This document shows positions 3 to 54,682 of a stretch of DNA of 64,000 nucleotides, piece after piece; the stretch's first letter is position 1; every line of letters begins with the position of its first letter. This stretch comes from a bacterium. GTDB taxonomy: Bacteria > Patescibacteriota > Microgenomatia > Daviesbacterales > UBA10151. Below the pieces are notes generated by a model that saw only the letters and a program-made list of their open reading frames with translations, searched no databases and was not told where the DNA came from. The position numbers were made by a program, and so were the translations under genes. The stretch lies in assembly GCA_021786315.1 (NCBI GenBank), contig JAJYNN010000002.1, forward strand, positions 100,160 to 164,159, given 5' to 3'.

Positions 3-863
3 GACAAGGATGGCAGGATTCATTCGACTTTTAATGTTGAAGGTGCGGCTACCGGCAGGCTTTCCTCGGAAAATCCCAATTTACAAAACATCCCCATTAA
101 GGGGGAGATAGGTTCAGAGATCCGCAAGGCTTTTGTGGCGGCCAAAGGTAAGGTACTCCTGGCTGCGGACTACTCCCAAATTGAGTTGCGGATTATGGCC
201 CACTTGGCCGATGATCCGGGGTTAAAGAAAGCCTTTAATGAAGGTTTGGATATTCATACAGCAACCGCTTCCAAGATTTTCAATGTTCCTGTTTCCGAGG
301 TAACGAAGCACCAAAGAATGATCGGCAAAACCATGAATTTTGCTACCCTTTACGGCCAGGGACCGCATGCTTTGTCCCGCCAGCTGGGGGTGGATTATGC
401 CACCGCACAAAACTATATCGCCGAGTACTTTGCTCAGTTTCCCAAGGTCAAAGACTGGATGGCCAGGGTGGTTTCTGATGCCTATACCAAAGGCTATACT
501 GAAACTCTTTGGGGTAGAAAACGGTACTTTCCGGAATTAACCACCGGGGTTAATCGGGCCTTCCGGGCAGCGGGGGAGCGGGCGGCGGTCAACCACCCGG
601 TGCAGGGGACAGCAGCGGATATGATTAAAAAGGCCATGGTGGAGATTGATGAAGAATTAAGAATTAAGAATTCAGAATACAGAATGATTCTTCAGGTGCA
701 CGATGAATTGGTTTTTGAGTGTGACCCCAAGGAGGTAGAAAGTACGGCCAAATTAGTCAAAGAGAAGATGGAAAATGCCTTGAAACTCTCGGTGCCGGTC
801 ATTGCCGAGCTTAAAATTGGCCCCAACTGGGGCGAGATGAAGCCTTTGGATATGCTAAAATAG
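3..863 (+). CDS. polA: DNA polymerase I, C-terminal polymerase domain (5'-partial, starts before window)
   Basis: Frame-3 translation from position 3 reads ...GRLSSENPNLQNIPI...LLAADYSQIELRIMAHL...QVHDELVFE, the classic Pol I family A motifs A, B and C. The ORF is open to the window start. Confidence 0.9.
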   Translation, partial: DKDGRIHSTFNVEGAATGRLSSENPNLQNIPIKGEIGSEIRKAFVAAKGKVLLAADYSQIELRIMAHLADDPGLKKAFNEGLDIHTATASKIFNVPVSEVTKHQRMIGKTMNFATLYGQGPHALSRQLGVDYATAQNYIAEYFAQFPKVKDWMARVVSDAYTKGYTETLWGRKRYFPELTTGVNRAFRAAGERAAVNHPVQGTAADMIKKAMVEIDEELRIKNSEYRMILQVHDELVFECDPKEVESTAKLVKEKMENALKLSVPVIAELKIGPNWGEMKPLDMLK

Positions 864-867
864 ACCC

Positions 868-1188
868 ATGATTGAAATTCCTCCAGGTTTAAATGATTGG
901 TATGAGAAGGAATTACTACATCAAATGATTTCGGATAGTGGCGCCAAATGTCCGTTCGCTAAAAGCTCTCAGTGTGTGATGCAGGAAGGAGCACCTGTCT
1001 GTGATAGATACGATGAGGATGTTAGGGAGTGTGACGTTAGGCAACAGGGGATAGAAGAGTACATTTTACCTCTTCTTAAAAGGCGGGGTCTACACGAAGG
1101 TGATCAATTTTTCGAAGAGATTTGTCGGTCATTTGGAGAAAGAGTGCAAAAAAAGATTGATAAAAACCCTAAAGCACTAGACCACTAG
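868..1188 (+). CDS. hypothetical small Cys-containing protein
   Basis: 106-aa ORF immediately after the polA stop. No recognisable motif. Confidence 0.35.
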   Translation: MIEIPPGLNDWYEKELLHQMISDSGAKCPFAKSSQCVMQEGAPVCDRYDEDVRECDVRQQGIEEYILPLLKRRGLHEGDQFFEEICRSFGERVQKKIDKNPKALDH

Positions 1189-2097
1189 CTTTTTTACTTC
1201 CCGTGTTTCAACCTCATAATGGGTAAACCCGGTTTTTTCCAGGATTAAAAAGATTAATGACAGTAGGGGCGAAAGAAAGATTGAAAGAAGGGAAGAAAAT
1301 GTTTGCAGGGTAAAAAAGAGGATGACAGCCAAAAAGATGGGAATGTATTTTTGATAAGGAGCAATAAAGTTATCAATTTGAGAACGGATCATCGGTTTAA
1401 TTAGTTCCTGGGGTGAAAGCTGGCTTTGGGATTGGCTCTGTGTTTTGATGGTTTCCAAAACTTTGGGATCCAGCCCGAATTGTTTTAAAGCCTGGGGGTT
1501 TTTCTCCAACAGGGCAATTTGTTCGGGGGATAAGGCTGGAAGGTTGTTTTCCGTGCTGCCTACCGCCAATTGGTCTTTAGGGATAAATTGCAGGCTCATA
1601 TCAATTAAAGAATCAGGGAGGGTGAAACCTTTTTGGGTAATGAATTGATCAGCTGCTAGGTAAAACCCCACCGAGGAAATGATAACAAGCAAGGTTATCA
1701 GCTGTTTTGTTTGAGGGGAAAGTAGATTGGAGGCCTGGAAGGTGAGGTAACTTTTTAATTTTTGTAAAAGTAAAAAGGAGACGGCAAATAGGGAAAGCAG
1801 CAATTCCCCGGCAACAATGAAGCTTAACGGTGCCGGTAAAAGAAGGATGGGGGAGATCGCGGCAATGAAAATTACCGGCAGGATATACTTTAAATCGGAG
1901 GTCAAAGTAACAAAAACAATAAATGATAGTCCGGATAAAACAATTAAAGCTGAAAGAATAATTGTTTGAACCAGGATCTTAGTATCTAAGGATAAAACAA
2001 AATTAGGATCCTGGAGAAAGCCACTAAATTGAAGTAAAAACCCACAAAGGAAGAGGATAAAGGGCAGGGCAAAGAAACCTTTTTTTAGAAGATCCAT
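1177..2097 (-). CDS. hypothetical polytopic membrane protein
   Basis: 306-aa ORF with multiple hydrophobic segments and an SQSQSQ low-complexity stretch. Confidence 0.5.
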   Translation of the reverse strand: MDLLKKGFFALPFILFLCGFLLQFSGFLQDPNFVLSLDTKILVQTIILSALIVLSGLSFIVFVTLTSDLKYILPVIFIAAISPILLLPAPLSFIVAGELLLSLFAVSFLLLQKLKSYLTFQASNLLSPQTKQLITLLVIISSVGFYLAADQFITQKGFTLPDSLIDMSLQFIPKDQLAVGSTENNLPALSPEQIALLEKNPQALKQFGLDPKVLETIKTQSQSQSQLSPQELIKPMIRSQIDNFIAPYQKYIPIFLAVILFFTLQTFSSLLSIFLSPLLSLIFLILEKTGFTHYEVETREVKKLVV

Positions 2098-2203
2098 TAA
2101 TCAAGTGTAGCATTTTTAATGCTTGTGGTCATTTTTGGGAGAGCCTTGAGAATTTTATCTTGAGCTGATTGACAATGTTTTTGGATTTACTTATAGTGTT
2201 TTT

Positions 2204-2899
2204 GTGGAAGGTCACGAATTACCTACTAATCAGTCAGGGTCTGCAAGTAATGAACGCATAAGAGCTATTGAGTTTGTTCAAGAACATGCAGTGGGGGAAA
2301 TTCAAGTTGCGAGAGAAAGGCTTGCTGAAGAGCAGAGGAGACTGAGAGCATCTCAGGAGCAGCAGGCTTATCCTACGGAAAGAACTGTGGAAAAAGTTCT
2401 TTATCTGCTGGAATTAGTAGAGCATAGTAAATATCTAAAAGAATATTTCCAAAGGATGGGCACAAAAATAGACTTTACTCCTTGGCGGCCTTCGTCAAGC
2501 CGCGTAGCAATAAGTATAAGCCGTATACCAGGATTAAGAGGGTATGGGAAACCGGAAAGCGAAGTGGAGGGCTTGATAGTGTATCGGGCTGATGAGAATC
2601 AGCTTCGTTTATTTGGAGCCAAGGATCCTCATAGCCAACTTGGACCTAAGTATGGCGGTGCCTATTTACAGCCTGTGACTGCCGAAAGAAGTATTCATGT
2701 ATTGGCGGACAATGGAGATGCGCCGAAAACCCTGAATTATTTGGGAAGCTTGAACAAGGAGGTTATCCTTGAGAAGCTTGAGAAAGCAGTTGATCCGGAG
2801 GGCAAATATCATCAAGATAACCCAGACACTGCCGGTTCGGGGGAAGTTGCAACAGAAGACACCGGGAAACTTCTGCAATTTAAGCCAAGGAATAATTAA
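2204..2899 (+). CDS. hypothetical protein
   Basis: 231-aa ORF with no recognisable domain. Confidence 0.4.
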   Translation: MEGHELPTNQSGSASNERIRAIEFVQEHAVGEIQVARERLAEEQRRLRASQEQQAYPTERTVEKVLYLLELVEHSKYLKEYFQRMGTKIDFTPWRPSSSRVAISISRIPGLRGYGKPESEVEGLIVYRADENQLRLFGAKDPHSQLGPKYGGAYLQPVTAERSIHVLADNGDAPKTLNYLGSLNKEVILEKLEKAVDPEGKYHQDNPDTAGSGEVATEDTGKLLQFKPRNN

Positions 2900-4449: not shown

Positions 4450-5310
4450 ATGCCGGAACTTCCCGAAGTCGAGACAATCAAAAGGGGACTGGAGAAAAAG
4501 ATTATCGGATTGTCTTTAGAAAAAGTTGTTATCTTAAACCCGAAAACCTTCCAGGGTGACCCCCAAACACTACAGGGTAAAAAAGTACTCAATATCTTTC
4601 GAAAAGCTAAGATGCTGGGGATAAATCTCTCTGGTGATACAGCTATTGTTTTCCATTTAAAAATGACCGGGCAGTTAATTTTTGTCGGTGATGGGGAAAG
4701 GCTTTTGGGAGGTCATCCAACGGAGGATATGAAGGGGCAGATGCCCAATTTTTCTACCCGGGTAGTCTTTGAATTTAATGATAAATCCAAACTTTACTTT
4801 AATGACCAGCGGAAATTCGGCTGGGTAAAGGTTTTCAAAAGTTCAGAATTAAGAATTAAGAATTATGAATTACTTGGTAAACTGGGACCAGAGCCTTTAG
4901 AGCCGGAATTTACTTGGCAAATTCTTAAATCTAACCTCTTAAATCATAAATCTCAACCTGTAAAGGTTGCTTTGATGGATCAGTCGGTAGTTTCGGGAGT
5001 GGGGAATATTTATGCCTCTGAATCCCTCTTTTTAGCCCGGATTGACCCCCGAAGAAAGGTGTCGACATTAAGTGATGAGGAATTCAAGAAATTACACGAT
5101 GCCATTATTGAATCCCTGGATTCTTCCATTAAAGCCGGAGGTTCCACCCGGGCTCATTTTGTCAATATTGAAGGGGAGAGGGGATACTTTTTAGATTTTG
5201 CCAATGTCTATAACCGTCAGGGCCAAAAGTGTAAGGGTTGTCCGGGTAAGGTAGAAAAGATCGAACAAGCTGGTAGAGGAACATATTTTTGCCCCAGTTG
5301 CCAAAAGTGA
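4450..5310 (+). CDS. mutM: formamidopyrimidine-DNA glycosylase
   Basis: N-terminal MPELPEVE with catalytic Pro2/Glu3. C-terminal zinc finger CKGCPGKV...YFCPSCQ. Confidence 0.9.
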   Translation: MPELPEVETIKRGLEKKIIGLSLEKVVILNPKTFQGDPQTLQGKKVLNIFRKAKMLGINLSGDTAIVFHLKMTGQLIFVGDGERLLGGHPTEDMKGQMPNFSTRVVFEFNDKSKLYFNDQRKFGWVKVFKSSELRIKNYELLGKLGPEPLEPEFTWQILKSNLLNHKSQPVKVALMDQSVVSGVGNIYASESLFLARIDPRRKVSTLSDEEFKKLHDAIIESLDSSIKAGGSTRAHFVNIEGERGYFLDFANVYNRQGQKCKGCPGKVEKIEQAGRGTYFCPSCQK

Positions 5311-7763: not shown

Positions 7764-8876
7764 ATGGTTTTAAAAAATCTCACGCTGACTAATTTCCGTA
7801 ATCTTGCCAAGGTGAATTTAGAGTTTTCTCCGGTGACGGTTCTCTTGGGTAAAAATGCCCAGGGCAAGTCCAATATTTTAGAAGGGGCCTATTTTCTGGC
7901 CACCACTAAGTCGCCCCGGGCGGAAAGGGACTCCCAGCTGATTAAACAGGGGGAAGAATTTGCCAGAATCGAAGGTAGCGTGTCAGAGTGTCAGAGTGTC
8001 GGAGCGTCAGAAAATTCTGACATGCAGACACCCCGAAACGCCGATATTCTGAAATTAGAAATTGCTATGCAAAGAAGAGAGGGGATGGAGGGGGTAGAAA
8101 AAAGGGTTAAGGTAAACGGGGTGGCAAAAAGGGTGACGGATTATTTAGGGAATTTAGTGGCGGTCCATTTTGCCCCGGAGGATTTGAATCTGGTTACCGG
8201 ATCGCCGGCTTTGCGGCGCTGGCATGTGGATTTAACCTTGGCCCAGGTTGACCGCCGGTATAAAAACGCCCTGACCCAGTACCATCAAGCCTTGGTTTCC
8301 CGAAACCGGATCTTAAAAAATATCAAGGAAGGGACAGCCAAACTTAATGAACTGGATTACTGGACTAACCTCATAGTTGAATCAGGTGAGGTGGTCAGCG
8401 AGAAACGAAGATCGTTTTTTAAGAGCCTTAATGAGGAAGCGATAACTTTAAATAATTTGGGCGATTTGAGGTTTACCTACGAAGAAAGTGAAATTTCTGC
8501 CCAACGAATCAGGGAATATTTGAGCCGGGAAGTGGCCGCAGCTACGAGTTTAATTGGCCCCCACCGGGATGACTTTATATTTAAACAATCAGGACACGAT
8601 TTGGCCTATTTTGGATCCCGGGGCCAGCAGCGGATTGCGGTTTTAGCCTTAAAACTCTCGGAACTGAAATTTATGCAGACAATTACCGGGATCAAACCGC
8701 TGCTGATTTTGGATGATGTTTTTTCCGAACTGGATGAAGCGGCCCGGGATTTTGTGGCTGAGGTTATCTCAGACCAGCAGGTGATCCTTTCTGCTGTGGA
8801 GAAGGAACATATTCCGGAGAAGCTAAAAGAGGGAGCCAAAATAATCCGGGTGGAGAAGGGGAAAATTATCTCTTAA
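7764..8876 (+). CDS. recF: DNA replication/repair protein RecF (with in-frame repeat insertion)
   Basis: N-terminal Walker A LGKNAQGKSNILEGAYFLATTKSPR. C-terminal LILDDVFSELD (Walker B / D-loop). Confidence 0.85.
   Translation: MVLKNLTLTNFRNLAKVNLEFSPVTVLLGKNAQGKSNILEGAYFLATTKSPRAERDSQLIKQGEEFARIEGSVSECQSVGASENSDMQTPRNADILKLEIAMQRREGMEGVEKRVKVNGVAKRVTDYLGNLVAVHFAPEDLNLVTGSPALRRWHVDLTLAQVDRRYKNALTQYHQALVSRNRILKNIKEGTAKLNELDYWTNLIVESGEVVSEKRRSFFKSLNEEAITLNNLGDLRFTYEESEISAQRIREYLSREVAAATSLIGPHRDDFIFKQSGHDLAYFGSRGQQRIAVLALKLSELKFMQTITGIKPLLILDDVFSELDEAARDFVAEVISDQQVILSAVEKEHIPEKLKEGAKIIRVEKGKIIS
7979..8052. repeat. GC-rich palindromic repeat (core GAGTGTCRG), copy inside recF in frame
   Basis: gtgtcagagtgtcagagtgtcggagcgtcagaaaattctgacatgcagacaccccgaaacgccgatattctga. 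Related copies lie at 38101-38190 and 41947-41988. Confidence 0.7.
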
Positions 8877-11808: not shown

Positions 11809-13542
11809 GTGACCTTTGCTCAATTTACCCAATTCTTAGAACAGTTAGAAAACACATCCTCCAGGCTGTCCTTGATTGATATTTTATCCCGGCTTTTCCG
11901 GGAGGTTTCCGTTTTAGAGATTACCCAGGTGGTGTATCTAATTCAGGGACGGGTGGCGCCGTTTTATGAACCGATTGAGTTAGGGATGAGTGAAAAGCTG
12001 GTTGCTGCCGCTATCGCCCGAGCGTATGGGGTCGACAAGGAAGAGGTCTTAAAAGAATACGGAAGAGTCGGGGATTTGGGGAAGGTGGCAGAAAAAATAG
12101 CCCAAGATTTAAGAATAAAGAATAAAGATTTAAGAGTAGATGAAGTTTTTAATATTTTACTGCAGATTGCCAAGACTTCAGGGGAGGGGACGGTGGATAG
12201 GAAAGTTACCCTTTTATCCGACCTGCTTAAAGGTATGGATCCAATTTCGGCAAAACATCTAGTGAGGATCCCCTTGGGAACCAGCAGGCTGGGGGTTGGA
12301 GATCCGACGGTTTTGGATGCCTTTGCCCAAAGCAAGTTGGGGGATAGGAAACAGAGAAAGGAGTTGGAGGAAGCCTACAATAGGACTTCGGATTTAGGGC
12401 TAATTGGAGAGACACTTTGGAATCAGGGTTTGGAAGGAGTCAAAAAGCTGGATGTGACTGTTGGCCGGCCAATCAGGCCTCAGCTTGCCGAACGGTTGCC
12501 GACTCCCGAGGCAATCATGGAAAAATTTGGCGGCCGGGCCCATGTCCAGTTTAAATTTGACGGGTTCCGCACCCAAATCCACAAAAACGGTGATGAAGTT
12601 CGGATTTTTTCCCGCAATTTGGAAGAAACCACGGCGATGCTGCCGGAGATTGTCGAGGGGGCCAAAAAACAAATTAAAGCCAAGACCGCAATATTAGATG
12701 CTGAAGCCTTAGCCTTTAATCCTACCTCGGATGAGTTTTTGCCTTTTCAGGAAACTGCTAAACGGAGAAGAAAATATCAGGTGGAGGAGATGGCCCAAAA
12801 GCTTCCCTTAAAGGCCTTTGTTTTTGATGTGATGTATGTGGACGGAAAATCCTATGTGGGGATGCCGCTTTCCGAAAGGATTAAGGAACTGCAAAAGGTT
12901 ATCTCCGGAGATGAGGTTTTAGTGGTCCAACCGGGGGAGTTTACCGATAAAACGGAAAGGATCCAGGAGCTTTTTGATGATGCCATTACCAAAGGTTTGG
13001 AAGGATTGGTGGTTAAAAAACCGGACACTGGGTATGAGGCGGGAGCAAGAAACTTTAACTGGGTCAAACTTAAAAGGCACTCCTCCGGTGAGCTCAAAGA
13101 TACTATTGATGTGGTTTTACTAGGTTACATCTTTGGCCGGGGGAAGCGGGCGGAGTTTGGGGCAGGGTCACTTTTGGTGGGTGTCTATGATAAAGAAAAA
13201 GACGAATTTGTAACGGTGACTAAAATCGGCACCGGGTTATCAGATGAGGAATGGCGGCAGATCCATGCCCGGGCAGATAAAATCCGGGTGGAGAAAAAAC
13301 CGGCGCGGGTCAATGCCATTGTGGAACCTTCGGTGTGGATTAAACCGGAGATTGTTTTGGAGGTTTTGGCTGATGAAATTACTAAAAGCCCGGTACATAC
13401 TGCAGGAAAGGTTGATGGCCAGCCGGGTTATGCCTTAAGATTCCCTAGGTTAGTTAATTTCCGGGATGACAAGAAGCCTGAAGATGCGACAACTGTCAAA
13501 GAGCTAGTCGAAATGTATTCCCAACAGTACAAAAAGGGATAA
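11809..13542 (+). CDS. lig: ATP-dependent DNA ligase (LigB / archaeal-eukaryotic type)
   Basis: Motif I KFDGFR (K-x-D-G-x-R). N-terminal DNA-binding-domain-like MTFAQFTQFLEQLENTSSRL. GTG start. Confidence 0.85.
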   Translation: MTFAQFTQFLEQLENTSSRLSLIDILSRLFREVSVLEITQVVYLIQGRVAPFYEPIELGMSEKLVAAAIARAYGVDKEEVLKEYGRVGDLGKVAEKIAQDLRIKNKDLRVDEVFNILLQIAKTSGEGTVDRKVTLLSDLLKGMDPISAKHLVRIPLGTSRLGVGDPTVLDAFAQSKLGDRKQRKELEEAYNRTSDLGLIGETLWNQGLEGVKKLDVTVGRPIRPQLAERLPTPEAIMEKFGGRAHVQFKFDGFRTQIHKNGDEVRIFSRNLEETTAMLPEIVEGAKKQIKAKTAILDAEALAFNPTSDEFLPFQETAKRRRKYQVEEMAQKLPLKAFVFDVMYVDGKSYVGMPLSERIKELQKVISGDEVLVVQPGEFTDKTERIQELFDDAITKGLEGLVVKKPDTGYEAGARNFNWVKLKRHSSGELKDTIDVVLLGYIFGRGKRAEFGAGSLLVGVYDKEKDEFVTVTKIGTGLSDEEWRQIHARADKIRVEKKPARVNAIVEPSVWIKPEIVLEVLADEITKSPVHTAGKVDGQPGYALRFPRLVNFRDDKKPEDATTVKELVEMYSQQYKKG

Positions 13543-19249: not shown

Positions 19250-21372
19250 GATTGAGATACTTGATAAACTTTGGTTTCCCCGGATTGGAAAATTACCTTG
19301 CCAAGTTCGGCGAACTTACTTTCCTGCAACCGCAGATATTTTTGTCTCTCCAGGGTGCCTATAAAAACGTAGGAAATATTGTATTTCTTAATTAACTCTT
19401 TGGTTAAGTTTAAATCCGGTGTTTCATATAAAGTTGTTACATCTTGTGACCTTCGGCCAGCTTCGTCATAAGAGCCCCGCCAGAGCCATTCATGGACCGG
19501 CCAGCCGATTACAGTTGGCAGTCCGGTATTGGAGGAAACCCGGGCAAAGTCAGTGTAGGAATCCCCCTGGCCCTCTAAAATTACCGGTTGGCCTTTGATA
19601 TTTTCCCGTAGCCACATAACTGCCTGATAATCAGTGGGGTAGAGGGTATAAAGGTAGTTTAAGCCGTTTAAGCCTTGATAATTTTCCAGGCCGCCGTAGT
19701 AGGAATTAACGCCGAAGATTGGGTAAATCCCGACTAAAAGGAAAAGCGGAATAAAGATTATATAGAATAGGATCTTTTTTAGTTCCATTATCCGGGTAAT
19801 CATATACCCGGAAATAAGGCCTAAGATAATGAAAGCCTGGTAACCAAGCTTAAAAACGGTGTTGGCCCGGTAGTGGGCAGGATAGATATCCTTAACGTAG
19901 AAAAACTCCGGGATCAGGATTAGGATAGTTGCCCCTAAAGCTAGGACTAAAACTAGATAATCAGAATTTACAATTTTAAATTTTAAATTTTCAAAGAATT
20001 TTTTAATTCTCAATTTTAAAACTAAGATCATAAAGCTAAAAATGACAAAGTAATAAAATCCCCAAAGAATCATTAACATCCACAGCGGGGATTTCATGCA
20101 GTGGTCAGGTTCAAAAAGAAACGGCCCAAGATGGCCTTTATCAACTAAGAACTGGGGAGCGCACAAGACTCCGATTCCCTGGCCAAAGGGGGCAAAAGCC
20201 AGCCAATAGGGTAGGGAAAAGATTACGGCCAGGAAGCTTAGAGGGATCATGACTTTAAATGTTTGCCAAAGTGATTTTTCTAAAGTATGGCCTTTTAAAG
20301 ATGAGAAGAAAAACAGTAATCCGGACACAAGAAGGTAGATCGGGCCGTCCAAAACGTTGGTCATCAAAGAGATCGATATCAGCAGTCCTAGAAGTAAAAT
20401 ATCCGTCAATCTAATCTTAGATTCAAAGAATATCTTAATGAGTAAGGCGATAGTCAAAAGGACAAAGGGGATATTTAAGACGTGGCCGTGCAAGTCAGCG
20501 ACAATAAATGAGTAGCTGGGGAATTCGTGGATGGTAAAAGGGATAAACCGGGTAGCGTTGGGGTACCAATAACCCTGGAGGTTAAAAGAGAAGGGTAACT
20601 GCCAGAAAGGAACCGGTTTATCGGGGGTGTAACTTTGGAAAAAGATATAAATGGTATGCAGGTTCCCTCCTAAAGTGACCAGGAAAGCGCTTAAAATGCC
20701 TGAAAGGTAGGAAAGTTTAGTAATTTGTGCTTTGAAACTGGAATAAAGGTTAAAACCAATGGAAAATGAGGCCGAAAGGCAGATGCCAAAAAGCGTGGCC
20801 AGAATTAAGTTATAGGAGATGCTGGGATCAAAGCCCGAGATTTTAGTCATGACCGCTCCAACAAGATGCCCGAAGTAATAATAATTAATAGAGAGAGGGG
20901 TCATCCAAAGGTCCCGGGGAGGGAAGTATCCGGTGCGGAGAATGGAATTGATGAAACCAAAGTCCATAAACTTTTCCAAGCCGTGGATGGAGGGTTCGTG
21001 GGCTCGGACAAAAGCCCAGAAGATCAACCCCCCTAAAAATAACCCTTCCTCAAGGGCATAAATCCTAAATTGCCCTAAAAGCGGGGGAAGTTTGAGCCGT
21101 TGTTTTTTTCCTCCCCAGATGATTGCCGAGTTAATCCCGATAAAAACCATCCAAATTAGAAACAACTCTAAGGTATTAAACGAAAAAATCCTTAAGCTTG
21201 AGAGAACCCAGGCGATGTAGCTTATTAACAAAACCCCGAGAATTTTCGATAAAGCATAGCCTTTGTCAAAAAAATTATGGAAGATTAAGCCGGTTAAAGG
21301 GAAAAATACGATACCGATTAAAAACCAAAGCAGCCACCACTGTAAAACATAGAAGACATCACCTAAATTCAT
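19246..21372 (-). CDS. large polytopic membrane protein (DUF2298-like, possible GT-C-type enzyme)
   Basis: 708 aa with more than 15 TM segments. It carries an in-frame AT-rich repeat copy (LKLRIKKFFENLKFKIVN). Confidence 0.5.
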   Translation of the reverse strand: MNLGDVFYVLQWWLLWFLIGIVFFPLTGLIFHNFFDKGYALSKILGVLLISYIAWVLSSLRIFSFNTLELFLIWMVFIGINSAIIWGGKKQRLKLPPLLGQFRIYALEEGLFLGGLIFWAFVRAHEPSIHGLEKFMDFGFINSILRTGYFPPRDLWMTPLSINYYYFGHLVGAVMTKISGFDPSISYNLILATLFGICLSASFSIGFNLYSSFKAQITKLSYLSGILSAFLVTLGGNLHTIYIFFQSYTPDKPVPFWQLPFSFNLQGYWYPNATRFIPFTIHEFPSYSFIVADLHGHVLNIPFVLLTIALLIKIFFESKIRLTDILLLGLLISISLMTNVLDGPIYLLVSGLLFFFSSLKGHTLEKSLWQTFKVMIPLSFLAVIFSLPYWLAFAPFGQGIGVLCAPQFLVDKGHLGPFLFEPDHCMKSPLWMLMILWGFYYFVIFSFMILVLKLRIKKFFENLKFKIVNSDYLVLVLALGATILILIPEFFYVKDIYPAHYRANTVFKLGYQAFIILGLISGYMITRIMELKKILFYIIFIPLFLLVGIYPIFGVNSYYGGLENYQGLNGLNYLYTLYPTDYQAVMWLRENIKGQPVILEGQGDSYTDFARVSSNTGLPTVIGWPVHEWLWRGSYDEAGRRSQDVTTLYETPDLNLTKELIKKYNISYVFIGTLERQKYLRLQESKFAELGKVIFQSGETKVYQVSQS
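19961..20030. repeat. AT-rich palindromic repeat family copy (in frame within membrane-protein gene)
   Basis: tcagaatttacaattttaaattttaaattttcaaagaattttttaattctcaattttaaaac. Confidence 0.55.
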
Positions 21373-27676: not shown

Positions 27677-27691
27677 ATTTAAAATTGAAAA

Positions 27692-33390: not shown

Positions 33391-33945
33391 TTGTCATTAT
33401 CATATAGACTTATGAAAATGAACGCCAAACAGCTACGGAGTAGTCAAAAGCCGGAAACCGGAAGTCGTAAGCCGGAAGCAGGAAACGAGATTTATATTAT
33501 CTTGGATAATGTTTTGGATACCTACAATATCGGGTCGATTTTCCGGCTGGCGGACGGTGCCGGGGTAAAAAAGGTTTATCTTTGCGGACATACTAATACC
33601 CCGCCTAACCCCAGGATCAAGAAGTCTTCTATCAATACTACCGAATGGGTGGATTGGGAATACGCCGAATCAACGGTTGAGTTGATTCGAAATTTAAAAT
33701 TTTCAATTCCCAATTTACAAGTAATTGCGGTTGAGCAGAGCGATGGATCAATTCCTTATGATAAATTTGACTACAAGCAACCTATAGCCCTGGTAGTAGG
33801 GCATGAAACTTATGGAGTTTCCAAAGAAGTTTTGGAGGTGGTAGATGCCACGGTGGAGATCCCCATGTTTGGGGTAAATATTTCCCTAAATGTCATGGTC
33901 TCTTTGGCAATTGTTTTGTATAAAGCCCTCGAAAAAATTGTGTAA
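33391..33945 (+). CDS. SpoU/TrmH-family RNA 2'-O-methyltransferase
   Basis: IILDNVLDTYNIGSIFRLADGAGV matches SpoU motif 1. ALVVGHETYGVS matches motif 2. Confidence 0.7.
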   Translation: MSLSYRLMKMNAKQLRSSQKPETGSRKPEAGNEIYIILDNVLDTYNIGSIFRLADGAGVKKVYLCGHTNTPPNPRIKKSSINTTEWVDWEYAESTVELIRNLKFSIPNLQVIAVEQSDGSIPYDKFDYKQPIALVVGHETYGVSKEVLEVVDATVEIPMFGVNISLNVMVSLAIVLYKALEKIV

Positions 33946-34883: not shown

Positions 34884-36341
<1,458 letters not shown>

Positions 36342-38190: not shown

Positions 38191-38325
38191 CAGGGGATTA
38201 TGGCGGTATTAAAATCCAAACTTCATAGATATCTAGATCAATTCCTTCCTGAAAACGGTTTGGTGAAACAATTCATTTATCTTCTAACTTCAGCACCGGT
38301 AGAATAATTAACCCAGATTTAAGAA

Positions 38326-38393
38326 TTAAGATTTAGGATTTAAGAGGGAATTTTGTGACTCTTAAATCTAGATTCCTAAATCTTAAATCCTTA
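38326..38393. repeat. AT-rich palindromic repeat family, intergenic full hairpin copy
   Basis: atttaagaattaagatttaggatttaagag...ctcttaaatctagattcctaaatcttaaatcc are near-perfect inverted arms. Confidence 0.75.
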
Positions 38394-38611: not shown

Positions 38612-39913
38612 ATGGATAAACTGCCTTATATTAACCTATCATTCTTAAAAAAGAACGACAAAGTAAAACTATTTCTAGATTCTGCTACTACTTTCTTCTC
38701 GAAATTTTTCAAGAGGGGGGTACCGGTTTTTACCAGTTTAATGGTGATGATGGCTATTACTATTAACGGAATAGGAACACCTTTAATACAAGTTTCGCCT
38801 CTGGTCTCTCCTTTACAGCCCTTAGTGGACCAAAAGAGCCAAAAAGAGGTTTTCGGCTTTGCGCCTTATTGGACCTTTAATAAGTTGGACAAGGTAGATT
38901 TTGATACCCTGACAACTATTGCCTACTTTGGGGTTCCTGTACTCTCGGATGGCACTTTGGATAAAACCGACCAGGGATATATTACTTTTGAGTCCCACCA
39001 GGCCACCCAGCTTTTCCAAAAGGCCCATCAGCACGGAACCAGGGTAGTTTTAACCTTGACCCAGATGAATAACTGGCCGATTCAGGCTATTTTGGATGAC
39101 CCTAATGCTACCCAAAATGTGATAAATCAGGGAGTTGATGCTGTCCAGTCCAGAGGGATTGACGGAATCAATGTTGATTTTGAGTATCAAGGTGACCCTG
39201 GACAAGACTATCGGGATAAATTTACCCATTTTATAGACCAGTTGACCCAGGCAATGCATAAAGCCAACCCTAATGCCAAAGTGACCGTTTCAGTTTATGC
39301 GGCATCTGTCAAAGATCCTAAAATTTATGATGTTGGGGCTTTGGCTAAAGTTTCTGACGGGATCTTTATGATGGCTTATGATTTTGCCAACTCCTCTTCG
39401 GATGTGGCGATGCCGACAGCCCCGCTTTTTGGAGCTTCCGATGGAACTTATTGGTATGACGTATCCACCGCTGTCAACGACTTTTTGCGGGTGATGCCGG
39501 CCAATAAGCTGATTTTGGGGGTACCTTGGTATGGGTATAACTATTCAGTAGGACAACCTCAGGTTAAAGCTTTAACTGGGTGGGGTGGAGGAGTCTCCCA
39601 GCCTTACTCGGTAGCCAAAGATAGCATCCAGCCTGATGCCACCGGTTGGGATAACGAAGGCAAGGTAGGCTGGGAAGCCTACCAAACTTGGGGCGGCTGG
39701 AGGATGATCTTTGTTGAAGATGCCAAATCTTTAGGGTTAAAGTATGACTTTGCCAAGAGCAAAAACCTTGAGGGTATTGGGATTTGGGCTTTGGGATTTG
39801 ATGACGGAAAACCGGAGATGTGGAGTACCTTAAAAAGTAAGTTTACCGGTTTAGTGAAAGACACTGCAGTTTTGGCCAAAGCTATTAAGGAGGTGCCGGA
39901 AAACGACATATGA
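38612..39913 (+). CDS. glycoside hydrolase family 18 (chitinase-like), secreted/membrane-anchored
   Basis: N-terminal TM helix. DGINVDFEY matches the GH18 DxxDxDxE catalytic motif. Confidence 0.65.
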   Translation: MDKLPYINLSFLKKNDKVKLFLDSATTFFSKFFKRGVPVFTSLMVMMAITINGIGTPLIQVSPLVSPLQPLVDQKSQKEVFGFAPYWTFNKLDKVDFDTLTTIAYFGVPVLSDGTLDKTDQGYITFESHQATQLFQKAHQHGTRVVLTLTQMNNWPIQAILDDPNATQNVINQGVDAVQSRGIDGINVDFEYQGDPGQDYRDKFTHFIDQLTQAMHKANPNAKVTVSVYAASVKDPKIYDVGALAKVSDGIFMMAYDFANSSSDVAMPTAPLFGASDGTYWYDVSTAVNDFLRVMPANKLILGVPWYGYNYSVGQPQVKALTGWGGGVSQPYSVAKDSIQPDATGWDNEGKVGWEAYQTWGGWRMIFVEDAKSLGLKYDFAKSKNLEGIGIWALGFDDGKPEMWSTLKSKFTGLVKDTAVLAKAIKEVPENDI

Positions 39914-47376: not shown

Positions 47377-47486
47377 CAGGTGAAACGGAGTTTCACAGAG
47401 TCTAGACTCTAGAATCTAGAGACTAGTCACTGTGAGCCTCTGGCTCACATTTGCACTTTGAAATGTGAATACGATGTATGAAGGCC

Positions 47487-47566
47487 AAATTCGAATTAAG
47501 AATTAGGAATTATGAATGATGAATGAAAATTCTGAATTCTAAATTCTACATTCTAAATTCATGAAA
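47487..47566. repeat. AT-rich palindromic repeat family, hairpin copy between tRNA-Ala and 23S
   Basis: gaattaagaattaggaattatgaatgatgaatg...cattctaaattctacattctaaattcatg. Confidence 0.7.
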
Positions 47567-48072
47567 TAGCCAAAAGATACTCAACAAAAAGGCATACGGT
47601 GAATGCCTTGGTCGAAAGTACCGATGAAGGACGTACTAGGCGACGATACTCTGCGAGGAGCTGCCAAGAAGCTTTGATCCGCAGGTTTCCGAATGGAGCA
47701 ATCCACTCTGGTTAATCCCAGAGGACCCATAAGTAAATACATAGCTTATGGGAGGGCACGCGCTGAACTGAAACATCTAAGTAAGCGCAGGAAGAGAAAT
47801 CAATTAGAGATTCCCCCAGTAGCGGCGAGCGAAAAGGGAAGAGCCCAAACCACGCATCACCTTAGGCAGCAATGCTTAAGACGCGTGGGGTTGTAGGACT
47901 GACAGTAGCGAGTAGCGAGGATAGCTGAAGACTCTGGAAAGAGTTGCCAAAGAGGGTGATAGCCCTGTAAGCGAAATCCAAACTGCCGTGGTCAGATTCC
48001 TGAGTACCCTAGGACACGTGTAATCCTGGGTGAATCTACGTCGACCATGACGTAAGGCTAAATATACTTTCG

Positions 48073-48112
<40 letters not shown>

Positions 48113-48845
48113 AAGAGCGGAACGCTCAGTGAAATAGTACCTGAAACCGTATGTTGACAAGCTGTGGAACTCGCGATTTATCGCGAGAACCGCGTGCCTA
48201 TTGAAGAATGAGCCGGTGAGTTACTTTGCATTCCAAGTTTAAGTGCCGTAAGGCGCGAAGGCGTAGTGAAAGCGAGCCTGAATGAGCGAAAGCTCCTGTC
48301 TTTGACAGTAGGGCGTTTAGGAGTGCACAGTAGACCCGAAACCGTGTGAGCTATCCATGTCCAGGGTGAACTTCTGCGAAAGCAGGAGGGAGGCCCGAAC
48401 CCGTTACTGTAGCAATAGTTTGGGATGAGATGTGGTTAGAGGTGATATGCCTAACGAACACGGAGATAGCTGGTTCTCCCCGAAATATATCTAGGTATAG
48501 CCCTGTGCAAGTTTGTAGGGGGTAGAGCTCTGGCTGGAACTAGGTGGCGCAAGCTATCTATTCCAATCAAACTTCAAATACTTACAAACGTAGCAGGAGT
48601 CAGTCCGATCCGGCTAAGCGGAGCGGGCTCGAGGGAAACATCCCGAACCGACAGTTAAGGTCCCTAAATACAGACTAAGTGTTAAAGGATGTAAAGTTCC
48701 TTAGACAGCCAGGAAGTTGGCTTAGAAGCAGCCATCTTTTAAAGAAAGCGTAACAGCTCGCTGGTCTACTACGGAATTTTGCGCCGACAATGAATCGGGG
48801 CTCAAGTCTGTTACCGAAACTACGGGTGCTTGTCCGTTGGACAAG

Positions 48846-48963
48846 AATTTTCAAGTACCAATTACCAATTTACAATGAATTTTCAATGACCAAATGTTTT
48901 AAACATTTGAAAATTTAGACATTGAGATTTGTTTGAAAATTGAAAATTGAAAATTGGAATTTC
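48846..48963. repeat. AT-rich repeat insertion within 23S rRNA (between ...GTCCGTTGGACAAG and TCGTCCTTCGGACGAG...)
   Basis: gaaaattgaaaattgaaaattgg repeats plus the palindrome caaatgttttaaacatttg interrupt an otherwise conserved 23S helix. Confidence 0.6.
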
Positions 48964-49794
48964 TCGTCCTTCGGACGAGTGCGGTAGGGGAGCGTTCTGG
49001 AGGGAGTGAAGCTCATGGTGTAAACCAGGGTGGACCGTCCAGAAGTGAGAATGCCGGTATGAGTAACGAAATTCCAGTGAGAAACTGGAACACCGAAAGC
49101 CCAAGGTTTCCGATCCAATGTTAATCAGGGTCGGGTTAATCGGCACCTAAGACGAGGCCAGATGGCGTAGTCGATGGAAGACCCGTCAAAATTCGGGTAT
49201 TAGGCTTTTCTGATAAAAACTTTACGGGTGGACAAAGTGGGAATAACCCAGTCCTCTATATGGGGATTTAAGCAACGAATTAGTGGGTGTAGGAAAATCC
49301 GCACCAGCTTTCCAAGAACGACTTAAGTCACTTATGTGGCTTAAGCTATCTTAAGTGATTTATCGTTTAAGGGAGCTAATCACGTTTGAAGTGAGTTGCG
49401 ACGACGTAAGTGGGTGATTTTCTGTTTTCAGGAAAAGACTCGTAAAGGAGAAAAGTTATAGCCGTACCATAAACCGACACAGGTGGGCGAGTTGAGTATA
49501 CACAGGTGATCGAGAGAACTATCCTTAAGGAACTCGGCAATACAGCTGGACGTAAGTTAGCAAGATGTCCCGCCCTAGACCGCAAGGTTGTGGGGTTGCA
49601 ACAAAAGACGCTGAGCGACTGTTTAACAAAAACACAGGTCCGTGCCAAAGCGAAAGCTGATGTATACGGGCTGACACCTGCCCAGTGCCAGTAATTTAAA
49701 ACTGTCTTTGACTCCTTGGAGCAATCCTTGGACGAGGAGGTGGTCTAAGATCTGGTGAACGGCAGCAGTAACTATAACTGTTCTATGGTAAGAT

Positions 49795-50443
49795 TCGTTG
49801 CCTTAGAAGGTGGTGTGTTTTGGATAATTCTGCTATATGCTGGAAAATCTGAGAATCCGGTGCTACTATGGTGTAATCTTCCCATAGATATGCCGAGTAA
49901 CAATGTATCCGGTGCAGAAAATCAGCAGGAAAGACTTAAGATTTGTGGCTGGATAGTTGGTTTTACTGATGGGGAAGGGTGTTTTTCCGTTTCCATCTTT
50001 AAAAACAGGACAACCAAGAGCGGATTTCAGGTAATGCCTGAATTTGTGATTACCCAAGGTCAAAAAAGTTTGAGCTCCTTAGAGCTTGTTAAAAACTTCT
50101 TTGGTTGTGGCGCTATTTATGTAAATAGACGCCACGATAATCACACGGAGAATATCTACCGCTATTGCGTCCGTTCAATTAAAGATTTGCAGGAGAAAAT
50201 AATACCTTTTTTCAAAGAAAATCAGCTAAGAACCAGCAAAAAAGAGGACTTTAACTTATTTTGTAGGGCAGTGGAGATGGTTTTAAATCGTCAACACTTA
50301 ACCGCAGAAGGTTTAAAGATTCTTCAAGATCTTAAGAATCCTCAGAAACCACACGCAGAACCCTGAAATTTCAGGGAAGATATGGTTCGAACTATGTGGC
50401 GACACATAGGATTTAGATCAAAGGAAGTCTAATAATAAAATGT
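49795..50443 (+). mobile_element. group-I-type intron in 23S rRNA (inserted in the GGTAAG|GCGAAATTCC region, E. coli ~1917-1931 equivalent). Boundaries are approximate.
   Basis: Exon sequence GTAACTATAACTGTTCTATGGTAAG resumes at GCGAAATTCCTTGTC after about 650 nt that contain a LAGLIDADG ORF. Confidence 0.6.
49890..50366 (+). CDS. LAGLIDADG homing endonuclease (intron-encoded)
   Basis: ICGWIVGFTDGEGCFSVSI matches the LAGLIDADG motif, with a second half-motif LVKNFFGCGAIYVN. Start set at the internal Met because the upstream part of the ORF is 23S exon. Confidence 0.65.
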   Translation: MPSNNVSGAENQQERLKICGWIVGFTDGEGCFSVSIFKNRTTKSGFQVMPEFVITQGQKSLSSLELVKNFFGCGAIYVNRRHDNHTENIYRYCVRSIKDLQEKIIPFFKENQLRTSKKEDFNLFCRAVEMVLNRQHLTAEGLKILQDLKNPQKPHAEP

Positions 50444-50914
50444 TGAGCGAAATTCCTTGTCTGGTGAGTTCAGACCCGCACGAAAGGTAGAACGACTTAG
50501 CGACTGTCTTGAGGATAGACTCGGTGAAATTGCAGTGGCTGTGAAGATGCGGCCTTCCCATACTTGGACAAAAAGACCCCGTGGAGCTTTACTGCAGCTT
50601 GGCCCTGATTTGAAAACTTAACTGTGTAGTGTAGGAGGGAGATTCGTCGTCAATGAAACACCTCTCTTTTAAGTTTTTAAGTCTCAACCTTAGCCATAAA
50701 CTGGCAAGGCGACAAGGTCTGGCGGGCAGTTTAACTGGGACGGTTTCCTCCAAAAACGTAACGGAGGAGTACAAAGGTGCACTTAGATCGGATGGCAATC
50801 GATCGTAAAGCGTAAAAGTAAAGAGTGCGCTTGACTGTGAGACCTACAAGTCGAGCAGGTGCGAAAGCAGGTTTTAGTGATCCCTACTTACCTCATGGGA
50901 GGGAGTAGGCTTAT

Positions 50915-50948
<34 letters not shown>

Positions 50949-51223
50949 GATACCCAACAGTCCACAAGGACGGTATCGTTCGGCACCTCGATGTCGGCTC
51001 ATCGCAGCGTGGGGCTGTAGAAGGTCCCAAGCGTCTGGCTGTTCGCCAGTTAAAGCGGTACGCGAGCTGGGTTCAAACCGTCGTAAGACAGGTTGGACTC
51101 TATCCAGTATGGGCGTTTGAAACTTGAGGGGAGTTATCTTTAGTACGAGAGGACCGAGATGAGGAAACCTCTAGTGTGCCAGTTGTCCCAAAAGGGCAGC
51201 GCTGGGTAGCTACGTTTCTTTAT

Positions 51224-51254
<31 letters not shown>

Positions 51255-51424
51255 AGACCCCAAGATTAGGTTTCTTTATTAGACCCCTGGAAGACTACCA
51301 GGTTGATAGGTTGCCGGTGTAAGCATAGCAATGTGTTTAGCCTAGCAATACTAATGGTCAAAGTTGAGATTTTTTGGCTTGAAGCCTTTAGAAGTCGTAT
51401 TCACATTTTGAAGTAGCAAAGAAA

Positions 51425-51683: not shown

Positions 51684-52262
51684 ATGTCTGCTCGAAACCG
51701 TGGTTTTACTCTGATAAGTCTACTTTTGCGACGCAAAAGATCTTGTCAAGGTTTCACCTTGATTGAACTCTTAGTTGTTATTTGTATTGTGGCAATCCTT
51801 GGTACCGTTGCTTTATTGGTTTATACCAATACTTTAAAAAGTGCCAGAATGGCAAAGAGAATTGGGGATTTGCAAAGTATTAATACGGCAATTGAATTGT
51901 ACCGGGATGAGAACAATCATTACCCAATTGCTACTAATTGGCGCTCTGAGTGTGCCAAAGGTGGTAATTTAAACCCCGATGATGTTGTCCCCGGATTAGT
52001 CCCTAAATATACCCGGATATTTCCTTCTGATCCCTTAATGGTTAAAAACACCAACTCTTCCTGTTATATGTATATCTCCAATGAAGATGGATCGGGATAT
52101 AAACTTTTGGATTATCAAATCAGTGAATTTACCCCCGCTGATTACTTAAAGGAGAGGGGGCTAATAGATCCGGCCCGGGATGGGGGATCGGATCCCTGCA
52201 AGGTGGACGGAGATTCACCGGAGGCCTGGGGTTTTTATACCTATAATGCCTGTGCCCTTTAA
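51684..52262 (+). CDS. type IV pilin / pseudopilin-like protein (prepilin N-terminal domain)
   Basis: QGFTLIELLVVICIVAILG matches the class III signal G|FTLIE. An upstream partial duplicate GFTLISLLL is present. Confidence 0.6.
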   Translation: MSARNRGFTLISLLLRRKRSCQGFTLIELLVVICIVAILGTVALLVYTNTLKSARMAKRIGDLQSINTAIELYRDENNHYPIATNWRSECAKGGNLNPDDVVPGLVPKYTRIFPSDPLMVKNTNSSCYMYISNEDGSGYKLLDYQISEFTPADYLKERGLIDPARDGGSDPCKVDGDSPEAWGFYTYNACAL

Positions 52263-52312
52263 AAGATTTAAGAATCTTAAATCTGCATTCCTAAATCTTA
52301 AATCTAGCTTAT
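52262..52312. repeat. AT-rich palindromic repeat family, half copy
   Basis: cttaaatctgcattcctaaatcttaaatctagc is nearly identical to the right arm of the 38326-38393 copy. Confidence 0.7.
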
Positions 52313-52375: not shown

Positions 52376-52493
52376 GTCCGGTGATTTGAGCGGTGCGGAA
52401 CCACCCTTTCCCATTCCGAACAGGGTCGTGAAACACACCAGCGCAGACGATACTAGGGTCGAAAGGCCTCGGGACAATATGTCATTGCCGGGA
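52376..52493 (+). rRNA. rrf: 5S ribosomal RNA (3' boundary uncertain; a duplicated 3'-end segment follows)
   Basis: TGTCCGGTGATTTGAGCGGTGCGGAACCACCC...CCCATTCCGAACAGGGTCGTGAAAC aligns with the bacterial 5S 5' half. GTCATTGCCGGGA occurs at 52481 and again at 52569. Confidence 0.5.
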
Positions 52494-52590: not shown

Positions 52591-52620
52591 AACCTCCTAA
52601 ACGGAGGTTTTTTGTTCTTT
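52591..52620 (+). terminator. rho-independent terminator after 5S
   Basis: cctcc-taaac-ggagg hairpin followed by ttttttgttcttttt. Confidence 0.6.
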
Positions 52621-52631
52621 TTAAACCCTTG

Positions 52632-52739: not shown

Positions 52740-52740
52740 T

Positions 52741-53082
52741 ATGGAAGACTTGCCCAAAACATCCCTAGAATGTAATAAACTTGCCCCCAATATTGCCAGG
52801 GTGGTAAAACAGGTAGAAACAGCAACCATCTCCTTGGCTGAGCTTGCCCAAAAAGAAGGGGTCGATATGGGTGTTTTGGTAAAAATCTGGGCCAATTTGC
52901 CCCTGGATGAATCCCAGGGTATGACCTATCTGGAAATGGCTGGACAATGTATCCTGGAAGTTTCCGGAGCAGTCGATAAAGCTTTTCCCGGCCTATCTTA
53001 TGAGGAAAAGATCATTAAGAAATTTGAGCTGATGGCCGGGCTGCTCCTTTTAAAAGCTGAGCAGGTGAAACAAATCCGCTAG
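52741..53082 (+). CDS. hypothetical protein
   Basis: 113-aa ORF starting immediately after the tandem repeat. Confidence 0.35.
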   Translation: MEDLPKTSLECNKLAPNIARVVKQVETATISLAELAQKEGVDMGVLVKIWANLPLDESQGMTYLEMAGQCILEVSGAVDKAFPGLSYEEKIIKKFELMAGLLLLKAEQVKQIR

Positions 53083-53147
53083 GGCTTGAGAAATAATCCT
53101 GAACTTGTTACAATCTCCCCATCAAAACAAGAAAGAGGACTACATGA

Positions 53148-54245: not shown

Positions 54246-54275
54246 TTTTAAATTTTAAAACTCAAATTTTAAAAT
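54243..54275. repeat. AT-rich repeat (aattttaaattttaaaactcaaattttaaaa) flanking the four-helix-bundle gene
   Basis: A partner copy cttaaaatttaaaatttagattta lies at 54648-54682 in inverted orientation. Confidence 0.55.
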
Positions 54276-54299
54276 AAACCTCAAAAAGGATGTCTAAAA

Positions 54300-54641
54300 T
54301 TATTTACTCTTTTCGACGATTTTAGAAAAAATGAGCGTCAATTCATGGGCTTCTGCCCAAAGTTCTCGGCATTCTGTTGTAAGACCTTCTTCTGTTTTTG
54401 CCAGGATTCTTAACCAGTATTTTGTTTCTCGGCATTCTTTGCGGCAAATACAAGCCTTATTATTAAAATCTCTCTTTGAAGAAGCCCCGTTTGCTTCCAT
54501 ATAATTTGCACCGATACTAGTTCCTGACCGTACTAATTGACTAATAATAGGAGTGACTATGGTATTTTTCGGAGCTCTTTTGCACAGTCCAATTACTTTT
54601 TCTGCAAAAACAGCACATCTTTCTTCCAGGTCATATTTCAT
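54300..54641 (-). CDS. four-helix-bundle protein (23S rRNA-intervening-sequence protein family, TIGR02436-like)
   Basis: SGTSIGANYMEANGASSKRDFNNKACICRKECRETKYWLRIL matches the conserved core of this family. Confidence 0.6.
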   Translation of the reverse strand: MKYDLEERCAVFAEKVIGLCKRAPKNTIVTPIISQLVRSGTSIGANYMEANGASSKRDFNNKACICRKECRETKYWLRILAKTEEGLTTECRELWAEAHELTLIFSKIVEKSK

Positions 54642-54647
54642 AGACTT

Positions 54648-54682
54648 ATTTTATAACTTAAAATTTAAAATTTAGATTTATC
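54648..54682. repeat. AT-rich repeat, inverted partner of 54243-54275
   Basis: cttaaaatttaaaatttagatttatc. Confidence 0.55.

Follow-up and report, generated by a model that had tools for sequence, protein, structure and literature searches.

Among the heptanucleotide repeats of bacteria, the short tandemly repeated repetitive (STRR) heptamers of cyanobacteria are a known class. Tracts of this kind occur in a 64,000-nucleotide (nt) stretch of contig JAJYNN010000002.1 (the window, a term that covers the whole stretch, in whose numbering tract coordinates are given), where arrays of 7-nt units, dominated by GAWTTAR, lie in protein-coding genes, a 23S rRNA gene and intergenic DNA. The closest named genomes are those of Candidatus Daviesbacteria (Microgenomates group, candidate phyla radiation (CPR)), with MutM proteins at most 67% identical to that of the window. 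Heptanucleotides are the commonest simple repeats with units of 5-11 nt in prokaryotes, and slippage related to the polymerase footprint has been proposed to explain them (Mrazek 2007, as summarised in PMC4679880). Long simple sequence repeats (LSSRs) of this kind and STRRs resemble the present tracts in being short tandem 7-nt arrays with a favoured period of 7, genome-specific units and a proposed slippage origin. Units that are not a multiple of three are normally kept out of coding DNA, whereas here they lie in frame inside essential genes at clade-shared sites and also build heptamer-arm hairpins, one of them inside 23S rRNA. The tracts belong to the LSSR class that favours 7 nt in many prokaryotes, with at least three head-to-tail units and a frequency above chance and above other periods, and here they additionally occur as inverted pairs that form hairpins. 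Slightly better than even chances can be given to the explanation that these heptanucleotide repeats arise by slippage and template switching, evolve in concert and are filtered by selection to tolerant loops.

The TAACTGA direct repeats of marine Beggiatoaceae, cyanobacteria and Bacteroidetes (MacGregor 2015, PMC4679880) are similar in that 2-6 tandem heptamers are scattered genome-wide, stop codons occur in all frames of the unit, and the few copies in open reading frames (ORFs) sit at tolerant positions. However, the same unit recurs from phylum to phylum in them, its usual place is just upstream of start codons, and inverted pairs are very rare (1 indirect repeat among 170 sets; PMC4679880), whereas the present tracts have many different units, often form inverted pairs and also occupy loops within proteins. 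Other near systems are the heptamer repeats of Nostoc (10.1101/2022.06.06.494920) and the quadruplex-forming heptamers of Xanthomonas and Nostoc (PMC4692102). Repetitive extragenic palindromic (REP) sequences and REP doublets forming hairpins (REPINs), which are mobilised by REP-associated tyrosine transposases (RAYTs), are extragenic and GC-rich, bear GTAG or CGTC as a tag and are found together with a RAYT gene (PMC3116915). They are alike in being short dispersed palindromic repeats that evolve within a genome, but the present tracts are AT-rich, untagged and partly intragenic, and no Y1-transposase family was found among the ORFs scanned (19 in the window). Rickettsia palindromic elements (RPEs) are ~100-150 bp long, fall into families that each have a conserved consensus and peptide, and lengthen the protein of the host gene (PMC10969869). 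They share with the present system palindromic repeats that lie in frame in housekeeping genes unrelated to one another, as well as in RNA genes and between genes, with the encoded peptides tolerated, and the window copies are distributed in this way, with in-frame copies in ORFs, one in an RNA gene and others in intergenic DNA. Unlike RPEs, only the 7-mer is conserved here, and one site carries different sequences in different genomes. Sizes and shapes differ too: the genic copies in the window are direct tracts of 28-35 nt, the intergenic hairpins IG1 and IG2 measure 68-74 nt, and the PolA inserts of relatives measure 40-60 nt.

A first inspection of the window from its letters (the sequence-only reading) had described a non-random AT-rich repeat family across coding, rRNA and intergenic DNA, with a palindromic 19-mer core as its element. 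The family is real: with up to three mismatches allowed, the core has 14 matches in the window compared with 0.07 expected from shuffles, and the copies in polA, mutM, the ligase gene, the GT-C gene and three intergenic sites (IG1, IG2 and IG3) were relocated at or near their reported positions. Its element was misjudged: what repeats is the 7-nt unit GAWTTAR, which stands in tandem 3-5 times per run. An unbiased self-similarity scan at lags of 3 to 12 nt, with block shuffles as the null, detected nine period-7 tracts at the stricter threshold (18/21 matches) and 13 at the looser one (17/21), against 0-3 at other periods and none in the shuffles. A profile built from the GAWTTAR arms themselves gives a family of nine arms at seven loci (each E <= 8e-5), a recovery that holds by construction, and it matched no locus of the window beyond the seven founding ones. 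At least six further period-7 tracts are built on other units, including those in the DUF2298 gene and in an insert of the 23S gene; these two and the tract at 54646-54680 are unmatched by the GAWTTAR profile. The sequence-only reading had counted at least 12 related elements; only the nine arms at seven loci belong to the GAWTTAR family. Intergenic DNA, at 8.4% of the window, holds 5 of 14 loci (P ~0.004), and eight loci are coding, at positions conserved in the clade. It is hardly credible that all this arose by chance from low complexity and a codon usage rich in AT (Glu-Leu-Arg-Ile-Lys-Asn codons). The units are AT-rich, the GT-C tract falls on a conserved LILNSxFLILN peptide, and a supposed second arm in mutM is conserved coding sequence, but the 14 matches against 0.07 place the similarity beyond an AT-rich shuffled null, and only period 7 is enriched although codon structure would favour multiples of 3. 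Copies also occur in intergenic DNA and rRNA, and the pattern holds across dozens of independent assemblies; the chance explanation is refuted in practice.

All intragenic copies are in frame, as the sequence-only reading had noted. The polA tract (654-688, plus strand; GAATTAA GAATTAA GAATTCA GAATACA GAATGAT; E 3e-6) encodes ELRIKNSEYRM slightly upstream of motif C (QVHDE). The mutM tract (4846-4873, plus strand; four units with AGTTCAG ahead of them) encodes ELRIKNYEL in the linker that joins the N-terminal domain to the H2TH domain, and the GAWTTAR-type tract of the ATP-dependent DNA ligase gene (12106-12140, plus strand; GATTTAA GAATAAA GAATAAA GATTTAA GAGTAGA) encodes DLRIKNKDLRV. Five GAWTTAR units (26508-26542, plus strand) form the template strand of a minus-strand gene for a GT-C/PMT-family glycosyltransferase (25994-27676), where they are read as SLILNSSFLILNS. 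ELRIKN recurs because all three plus-strand genic copies share one reading phase. A perfect (GAATTAA)n array would give an in-frame TAA every 21 nt, and the stop-making unit is altered in every coding GAWTTAR copy as read from the sequence (TCA in polA, TAT in mutM, AAA in the ligase gene, TTCATTC in the GT-C gene). The purine-rich strand of all four direct genic GAWTTAR tracts is the plus strand, regardless of gene orientation; GC skew is positive over nearly the whole window (1-56000) and negative near 56-62 kb.

The genic copies had also been taken for palindromes that add peptides without counterparts in homologues. As palindromes they fail: folding energies compared with 200 shuffles reveal no hairpin at polA, mutM, the GT-C gene or the ligase gene (z from -0.3 to +0.6; polA -0.28). 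A full hairpin in mutM (4846-4873 on the plus strand, 4918-4952 on the minus strand) was considered and rejected: its minus arm is conserved coding sequence (ILKSNLLNHKS, E ~3), a conserved LGPEPL lies between the arms, and the fold has a z of -0.28. PolA aligns without gaps to the E. coli Klenow fragment across ELRIKNSEYRM, and its loop of 15 amino acids (aa) has the outgroup length. The ligase aligns without gaps to the P. furiosus ligase and is shorter there than the S. solfataricus ligase. GT-C orthologues (55-65% identity) have a same-length LILNSxFLILN segment (e.g., PLILNSTFLILNF and SLILNSLFLILTI), so the GT-C copy is not an insertion. MutM is 2 aa longer than that of Geobacillus and equal in length to essentially all 47 close homologues. 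In its nearest relatives found (L094 and L095, with 81% and 75% identity), the linker has the same codon number as in the window and no periodicity, which indicates that a ~36-nt patch of the window mutM was replaced at constant length. Only DUF2298 gains residues among the five hosts: its tract (19959-19996, minus strand, unit AAATTTT, peptide ...KKFFENLKFKIVN) lies in a variable inter-helix loop and makes the protein ~7 aa longer than many orthologues. The net gain is zero in PolA, the ligase, GT-C and, against close relatives, MutM, so that peptides without counterparts survive as a claim for DUF2298 only. The dominant unit in this genome is currently GAWTTAR; its copies in genes are direct tracts, left over or converted, that leave the overall length unchanged. 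Comparison with homologues thus suggests that the tracts of this genome are not Rickettsia-style inserted elements; the added residues typical of RPEs are absent from the window apart from DUF2298 and present in relatives at PolA and the ligase.

Genuine hairpins occur outside the protein-coding genes. Two intergenic copies reported as full hairpins fold as such: IG1 (38316-38389; inverted arms 38316-38346 and 38359-38389 of four heptamers each, with a 12-nt loop) has 31-nt arms that are 81% complementary and folds at -24.7 kcal/mol (z -3.80), and IG2 (47493-47560), whose arms are also heptamers, has a z of -3.71; none of 200 shuffles is as stable in either case. IG2 lies downstream of a tRNA, and its end is followed after 16 nt by the 5' end of the 23S gene (47576). 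IG3 (52262-52312, minus strand; E 7e-7), between a pilin-like ORF and the 5S rRNA, is a single arm (52272-52304) with a mini-hairpin and a weak fold (z -2.9). The third strong hairpin is a 136-nt AT-rich insert of the 23S rRNA gene (48839-48974, plus strand) with period-7 arms of CCAATTA-type and GAAAATT x3 units, which folds at -35.3 kcal/mol (z -4.06), better than all 200 shuffles; in the window only IG1, IG2 and this insert do so. The reported copy in a 23S helix is therefore confirmed as a hairpin insert, although its unit differs from GAWTTAR and the profile does not match it.

The 23S insert occupies the apical loop of a hairpin that corresponds to positions 1206-1226 of the Rfam large subunit (LSU) model, between 1218 and 1219 and directly 5' of a conserved GGUAGGGGAGCGUUC, a flank by which the site is probably helix 45, the classic intervening-sequence site. 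Intervening sequences at helix 25 or helix 45 of 23S rRNA are known from Salmonella, Leptospira, Campylobacter and others, where they are excised by RNase III. The likeness is that of an AT-rich extended hairpin of ~100-150 nt that replaces a 23S helix tip, as the present insert does. The difference is that its arms are tandem heptamers. The 23S gene (47576-51374) has 3799 nt compared with 2925 nt in the model. A LAGLIDADG endonuclease ORF (49755-50366) lies inside it, presumably in a group I intron.

Period 7 and the sites of the tracts persist among relatives, of which 95 loci were gathered (L-numbers). A clade set of 42 loci with at least 61% PolA identity (414 kb) has 44 period-7 tracts and at most eight at any other period; an outgroup of 38 loci (312 kb) has 13 and at most three. 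Period-7 tracts or heptamer-arm hairpins occur in relatives at the same loops of PolA, MutM, the ligase and an SMC-like ATPase. The MutM linker holds 4-5 units in one register, with a unit that differs by genome: AATTAAG in the window, ATTCAGA in L004, GTGCAAA in L008 and L009, GTTCGGA in L010 and GTTCATA in L011. The PolA loop, bounded by ADMIKKAM and ILQVHDE, is 10-34 aa long in 38 non-redundant clade sequences compared with 14-15 aa in 25 non-redundant outgroup sequences. Its lag-7 identity in the clade is 0.46 against 0.22-0.30 at other lags, and the outgroup has no lag-7 excess. Longer PolA loops consist of a heptamer arm, an A-rich loop and an inverted heptamer arm, with arm units that include GAACTAG, TCAGTCG, AACGATA, CGAGAAA, CGAATAA, GAAAATT and AACCTAA. 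The arms begin at conserved Glu-Leu codons, and the A-rich loop corresponds to ancestral Gly-Lys-Asn codons (e.g., ELGKNC in L054 compared with ELG[SRSEDLG]K[KKPSSKFLVPSS]C in L028). Such genome-specific arm units seeded on local Glu-Leu codons point to in-place slippage and template switching with concerted evolution more than to RPE-type transposition of a conserved element. Half copies exist at the same loop (L018 has both arms, L021 and L040 the right arm only); they derive from full hairpins, and the window polA, with the ancestral 15 aa, is such a direct-tract state. At the ligase site, relatives carry CGACTAC (+12 aa, L002), AAAGTCA (L004) or a +7 aa insert (L003). The SMC/RecF-like ATPase of the window (ORF 7764-8876) has a period-8 tract (GTGTCAGA x4) with a small palindrome at 7976-8030; in L095 the same loop has GAGTTAA / GAATTAA (peptide SSELRVKNEELRE), and in L011 it carries an insert of 25 aa.

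Two further kinds of insert were observed in these proteins. MutM has a second tract site at window residues ~78-86 (FVGDGERLLGG), where the window has no tract and relatives have in-frame inserts of 5-7 aa or more with ACGAGAA, CCACGAA or GAATTCA heptamers (L095 252-283, L010 2310-2339, L011 7479-7507, L004 1455-1491). The PolA loop of L027, L031, L032, L035, L047 and L071 contains another, unrelated insert, a GC-richer palindrome (GTCATTGCGAGCGAAGCGA...) that encodes SSVIASEAKQS; it is absent from the window and also occurs elsewhere (L032 6530-6548, L051 12840-12858).

The tracts appear to be mutation hot spots that change quickly between close relatives. L008 and L019 are 99.98% identical, with three differences in 12.8 kb, two of which fall in the 35-nt mutM tract (P ~2e-5, a post-hoc estimate); one of the two makes a unit identical to its neighbour. 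No unit-number polymorphism was observed in the compared genomes, and strain polymorphism was absent from L092 and L093, two other assemblies of the species, whose identity with the window is 100% across 13.6 kb and 3.3 kb. A four-unit GAWTTAR pattern occurs in 103 scattered IMG/VR contigs, including giant-virus bins, and its presence in so many unrelated viral contigs suggests that the unit arises readily. A phage origin was considered, and the IMG/VR pattern scan gave no informative link to one.

Several observations weigh against slippage as a sufficient explanation. Units are shared by 19.9% of within-genome locus pairs compared with 5.6% of between-genome pairs when the window is included; without it, 13 pairs share units against 3.7 expected, a value reached in 1 of 5000 permutations, although genome-specific base composition may inflate this test. 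No consensus longer than the heptamer was found across copies; IG3, however, matches the right arm of IG1 over ~33 nt with two mismatches and with the same irregular order of unit variants, as expected of the near-identical half copy that had been reported at 52262-52312. The polA and mutM tracts have 20 identical nt in common, and a 36-nt stretch of the window mutM agrees at 30 of 36 positions with a tract in a different gene of L095. L039 and L040 have flanks that are 93% identical and unrelated PolA-loop tracts that differ by 54 nt. The three identical assemblies of the window species show no ongoing instability in this population. Slippage alone fails to explain the sharing of units between loci of one genome; together with IG1 and IG3, polA and mutM, L095, and L039 and L040, this sharing requires copying between loci. 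Such copying is what a mobile element does, and the boundary between the two explanations is therefore not sharp; unit sharing keeps a mobile-element or conversion component alive.

The corresponding alternative is that mobile non-autonomous palindromic mini-elements, of the MITE (miniature inverted-repeat transposable element) or RPE kind, spread, for example via a single-stranded hairpin intermediate, and that the copies seen are in-frame, stop-free survivors, with the window genic copies as decayed half-elements. It is possible, if doubtful. What the PolA and ligase inserts of relatives do to the host protein is RPE-like: the PolA loop is lengthened by as much as 19 aa through in-frame hairpins of 40-60 nt, 9 of 16 inserts there folding with z between -3.2 and -7.4, and the ligase gains 7 or 12 aa in two relatives, as DUF2298 gains 7 aa in the window. 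Shared units within a genome, the near-identity of IG1 and IG3 and the wholly different PolA loops of L039 and L040 would also follow, as would GAWTTAR tracts at non-orthologous places in relatives (L095, L003, L017, L022 and L030) and in one outgroup. The selfish, RPE-like insertion proposed in the sequence-only reading thus finds some footing in relatives but does not hold for the window, where the genic tracts are direct, four of five hosts have no net insertion and mutM was changed by an equal-length patch. Moreover, the consensus is only the 7-mer, and neither defined termini nor target-site duplications were seen; arm units vary by genome at one site and are seeded on local Glu-Leu codons; unrelated period-7 units coexist in each genome; and transposase and reverse-transcriptase families were not among the 19 window ORFs scanned, the scan covering these ORFs only.

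The favoured explanation by slippage and template switching can be laid out in five steps. Replication slippage would give rise to tandem duplicates of a local 7-mer, often on Glu-Leu or Asp-Leu codons (GAATTA, GAACTA). Intra-strand template switching over a short A-rich spacer could then copy the arm in inverted orientation, which would yield a heptamer-arm hairpin. Within a tract, units would convert one another, and this may drive the observed fast turnover while the 7-nt period is kept. Occasional ectopic conversion or copying between loci may then spread one unit to several loci, as the sharing of units indicates. Finally, selection would remove versions that break the frame, create stops or disturb the fold, and survivors would be found, as they are, between genes, at the tip of an rRNA helix and in a small number of tolerant protein loops, the same ones clade-wide. 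No function needs to be assumed for the tracts. A unit that is not a multiple of three would be expected to be purged from coding DNA, yet it occurs clade-wide in the same loops of replication and repair enzymes, with its sequence ever replaced. These very small genomes could thus offer a natural system in which slippage, palindrome formation and inter-locus conversion make and erase loop sequence, and a concrete source for the rRNA expansions and lineage-specific indels on which descriptions of CPR genomes often remark. No relevant CPR or Patescibacteria literature was found on heptamer, palindromic or in-frame repeats, in agreement with the earlier statement that nothing similar has been described in this group. 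Peptides such as ELRIKN, KCKVQSE and ELGSRSEDLG are products of DNA repeats and should not be annotated as conserved motifs. The prokaryotic preference for heptanucleotides, long unexplained, is now seen in a group with orthologous-site data that can test mechanisms.

A stronger version, in which Daviesbacteria-like CPR bacteria possess an active lineage-specific process that writes heptamer arrays and hairpins into the same loops (PolA, Fpg, DNA ligase, SMC-like ATPase) and into rRNA and homogenises them across loci, with period and position persisting, is unlikely. If it were true, it would imply dedicated trans-acting machinery or an unusual property of the replicative polymerase; candidates would be a single-strand transposase specific for hairpins, a templated polymerase or a replisome whose cycle includes a 7-nt realignment step. 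Protein surface loops would then be continually remodelled.

It is very unlikely that the tracts are functional words kept by selection or drive, such as protein-binding arrays, uptake-signal-like words or rRNA-processing and terminator hairpins. Uptake sequences are reported in genome-maintenance genes, and three of the window hosts are such genes. IG2 lies 16 nt before the 23S gene, IG3 before the 5S gene and the 23S insert at a helix tip; these positions make it probable that the hairpins are transcribed, and RNases could act on them. The heptamer repeats of Beggiatoaceae and Nostoc have been proposed to play a part in regulation (PMC4679880; 10.1101/2022.06.06.494920). However, no single conserved word exists here, since units at one and the same site differ by genome and several coexist per genome, and hosts also include glycosyltransferases, an oxidase and a methylase. 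An uptake signal sequence or DNA uptake sequence (USS/DUS) would be one conserved 9-12-nt word, lineage-wide, at ~1 per kb; the several units and the low density found, ~7 GAWTTAR loci in 64 kb, rule out this candidate. Genic copies are unfolded, and the strand asymmetry that RNA structure would give is missing: of 20 hairpins (17 PolA-loop inserts of relatives with IG1, IG2 and the 23S insert of the window), 11 are stabler as sense and nine as antisense. This lack of bias fits a palindrome at the DNA level, and selection on sense-strand RNA structure via G-U pairs was rejected on the same count.

The remaining period-7 tracts of the window are dispersed. An amine-oxidase-family gene has one of TAGGGGT / TAGTAGT units (27879-27914, minus strand; from the lag scan), and an AAATTTn tract (27664-27696) covers the 5' end of the GT-C gene (ORF 25994-27676, minus strand) together with the short gap that separates it from the amine-oxidase ORF (27692-29044). 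A palindromic tract of CTAGAGT-type units (47396-47431) lies between the tRNA and IG2, and an AAAATTT tract (54646-54680), at the end of the range covered by the sequence-only reading, lies between a PF05635 gene and a 3021-aa ORF. Weak tracts occur in a SpoU methylase gene (CCGGAAn, 33451-33486, plus strand) and in a GH18 gene (GGGATTT, 39771-39801, plus strand). Heptamers of telomere-like sequence appear in the amine-oxidase gene tract (TTAGGGG) and in L051 (TTTAGGG), a likeness that is probably coincidental. A G-rich period-6 tract (GGAGTG / GGGGTA, 30544-30600) lies in a 629-aa ORF (29755-31644, minus strand) without a Pfam match.

The rRNA genes of the window are unlinked (16S 34884-36338, 23S 47576-51374, 5S 52377-52493). 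The 16S-23S gap of ~11 kb holds protein genes (GH18, GAPDH and others) and two tRNAs, and the pilin-like ORF between 23S and 5S (51684-52262) has an N_methyl motif. A free-standing PF05635 gene ('23S rRNA intervening sequence protein', a four-helix bundle) occurs at 54300-54641 on the minus strand, and a homologue immediately follows polA in relative L011 (3559-3921). A diversity-generating retroelement at this Avd-like gene was considered and rejected: its neighbour encodes ribosomal protein S1, and no reverse-transcriptase family is found nearby. The 3021-aa ORF (54681-63746, minus strand) has a Peptidase_S74 (endosialidase chaperone) domain and a weak K1-lyase C-terminal match, and is tailspike-like.

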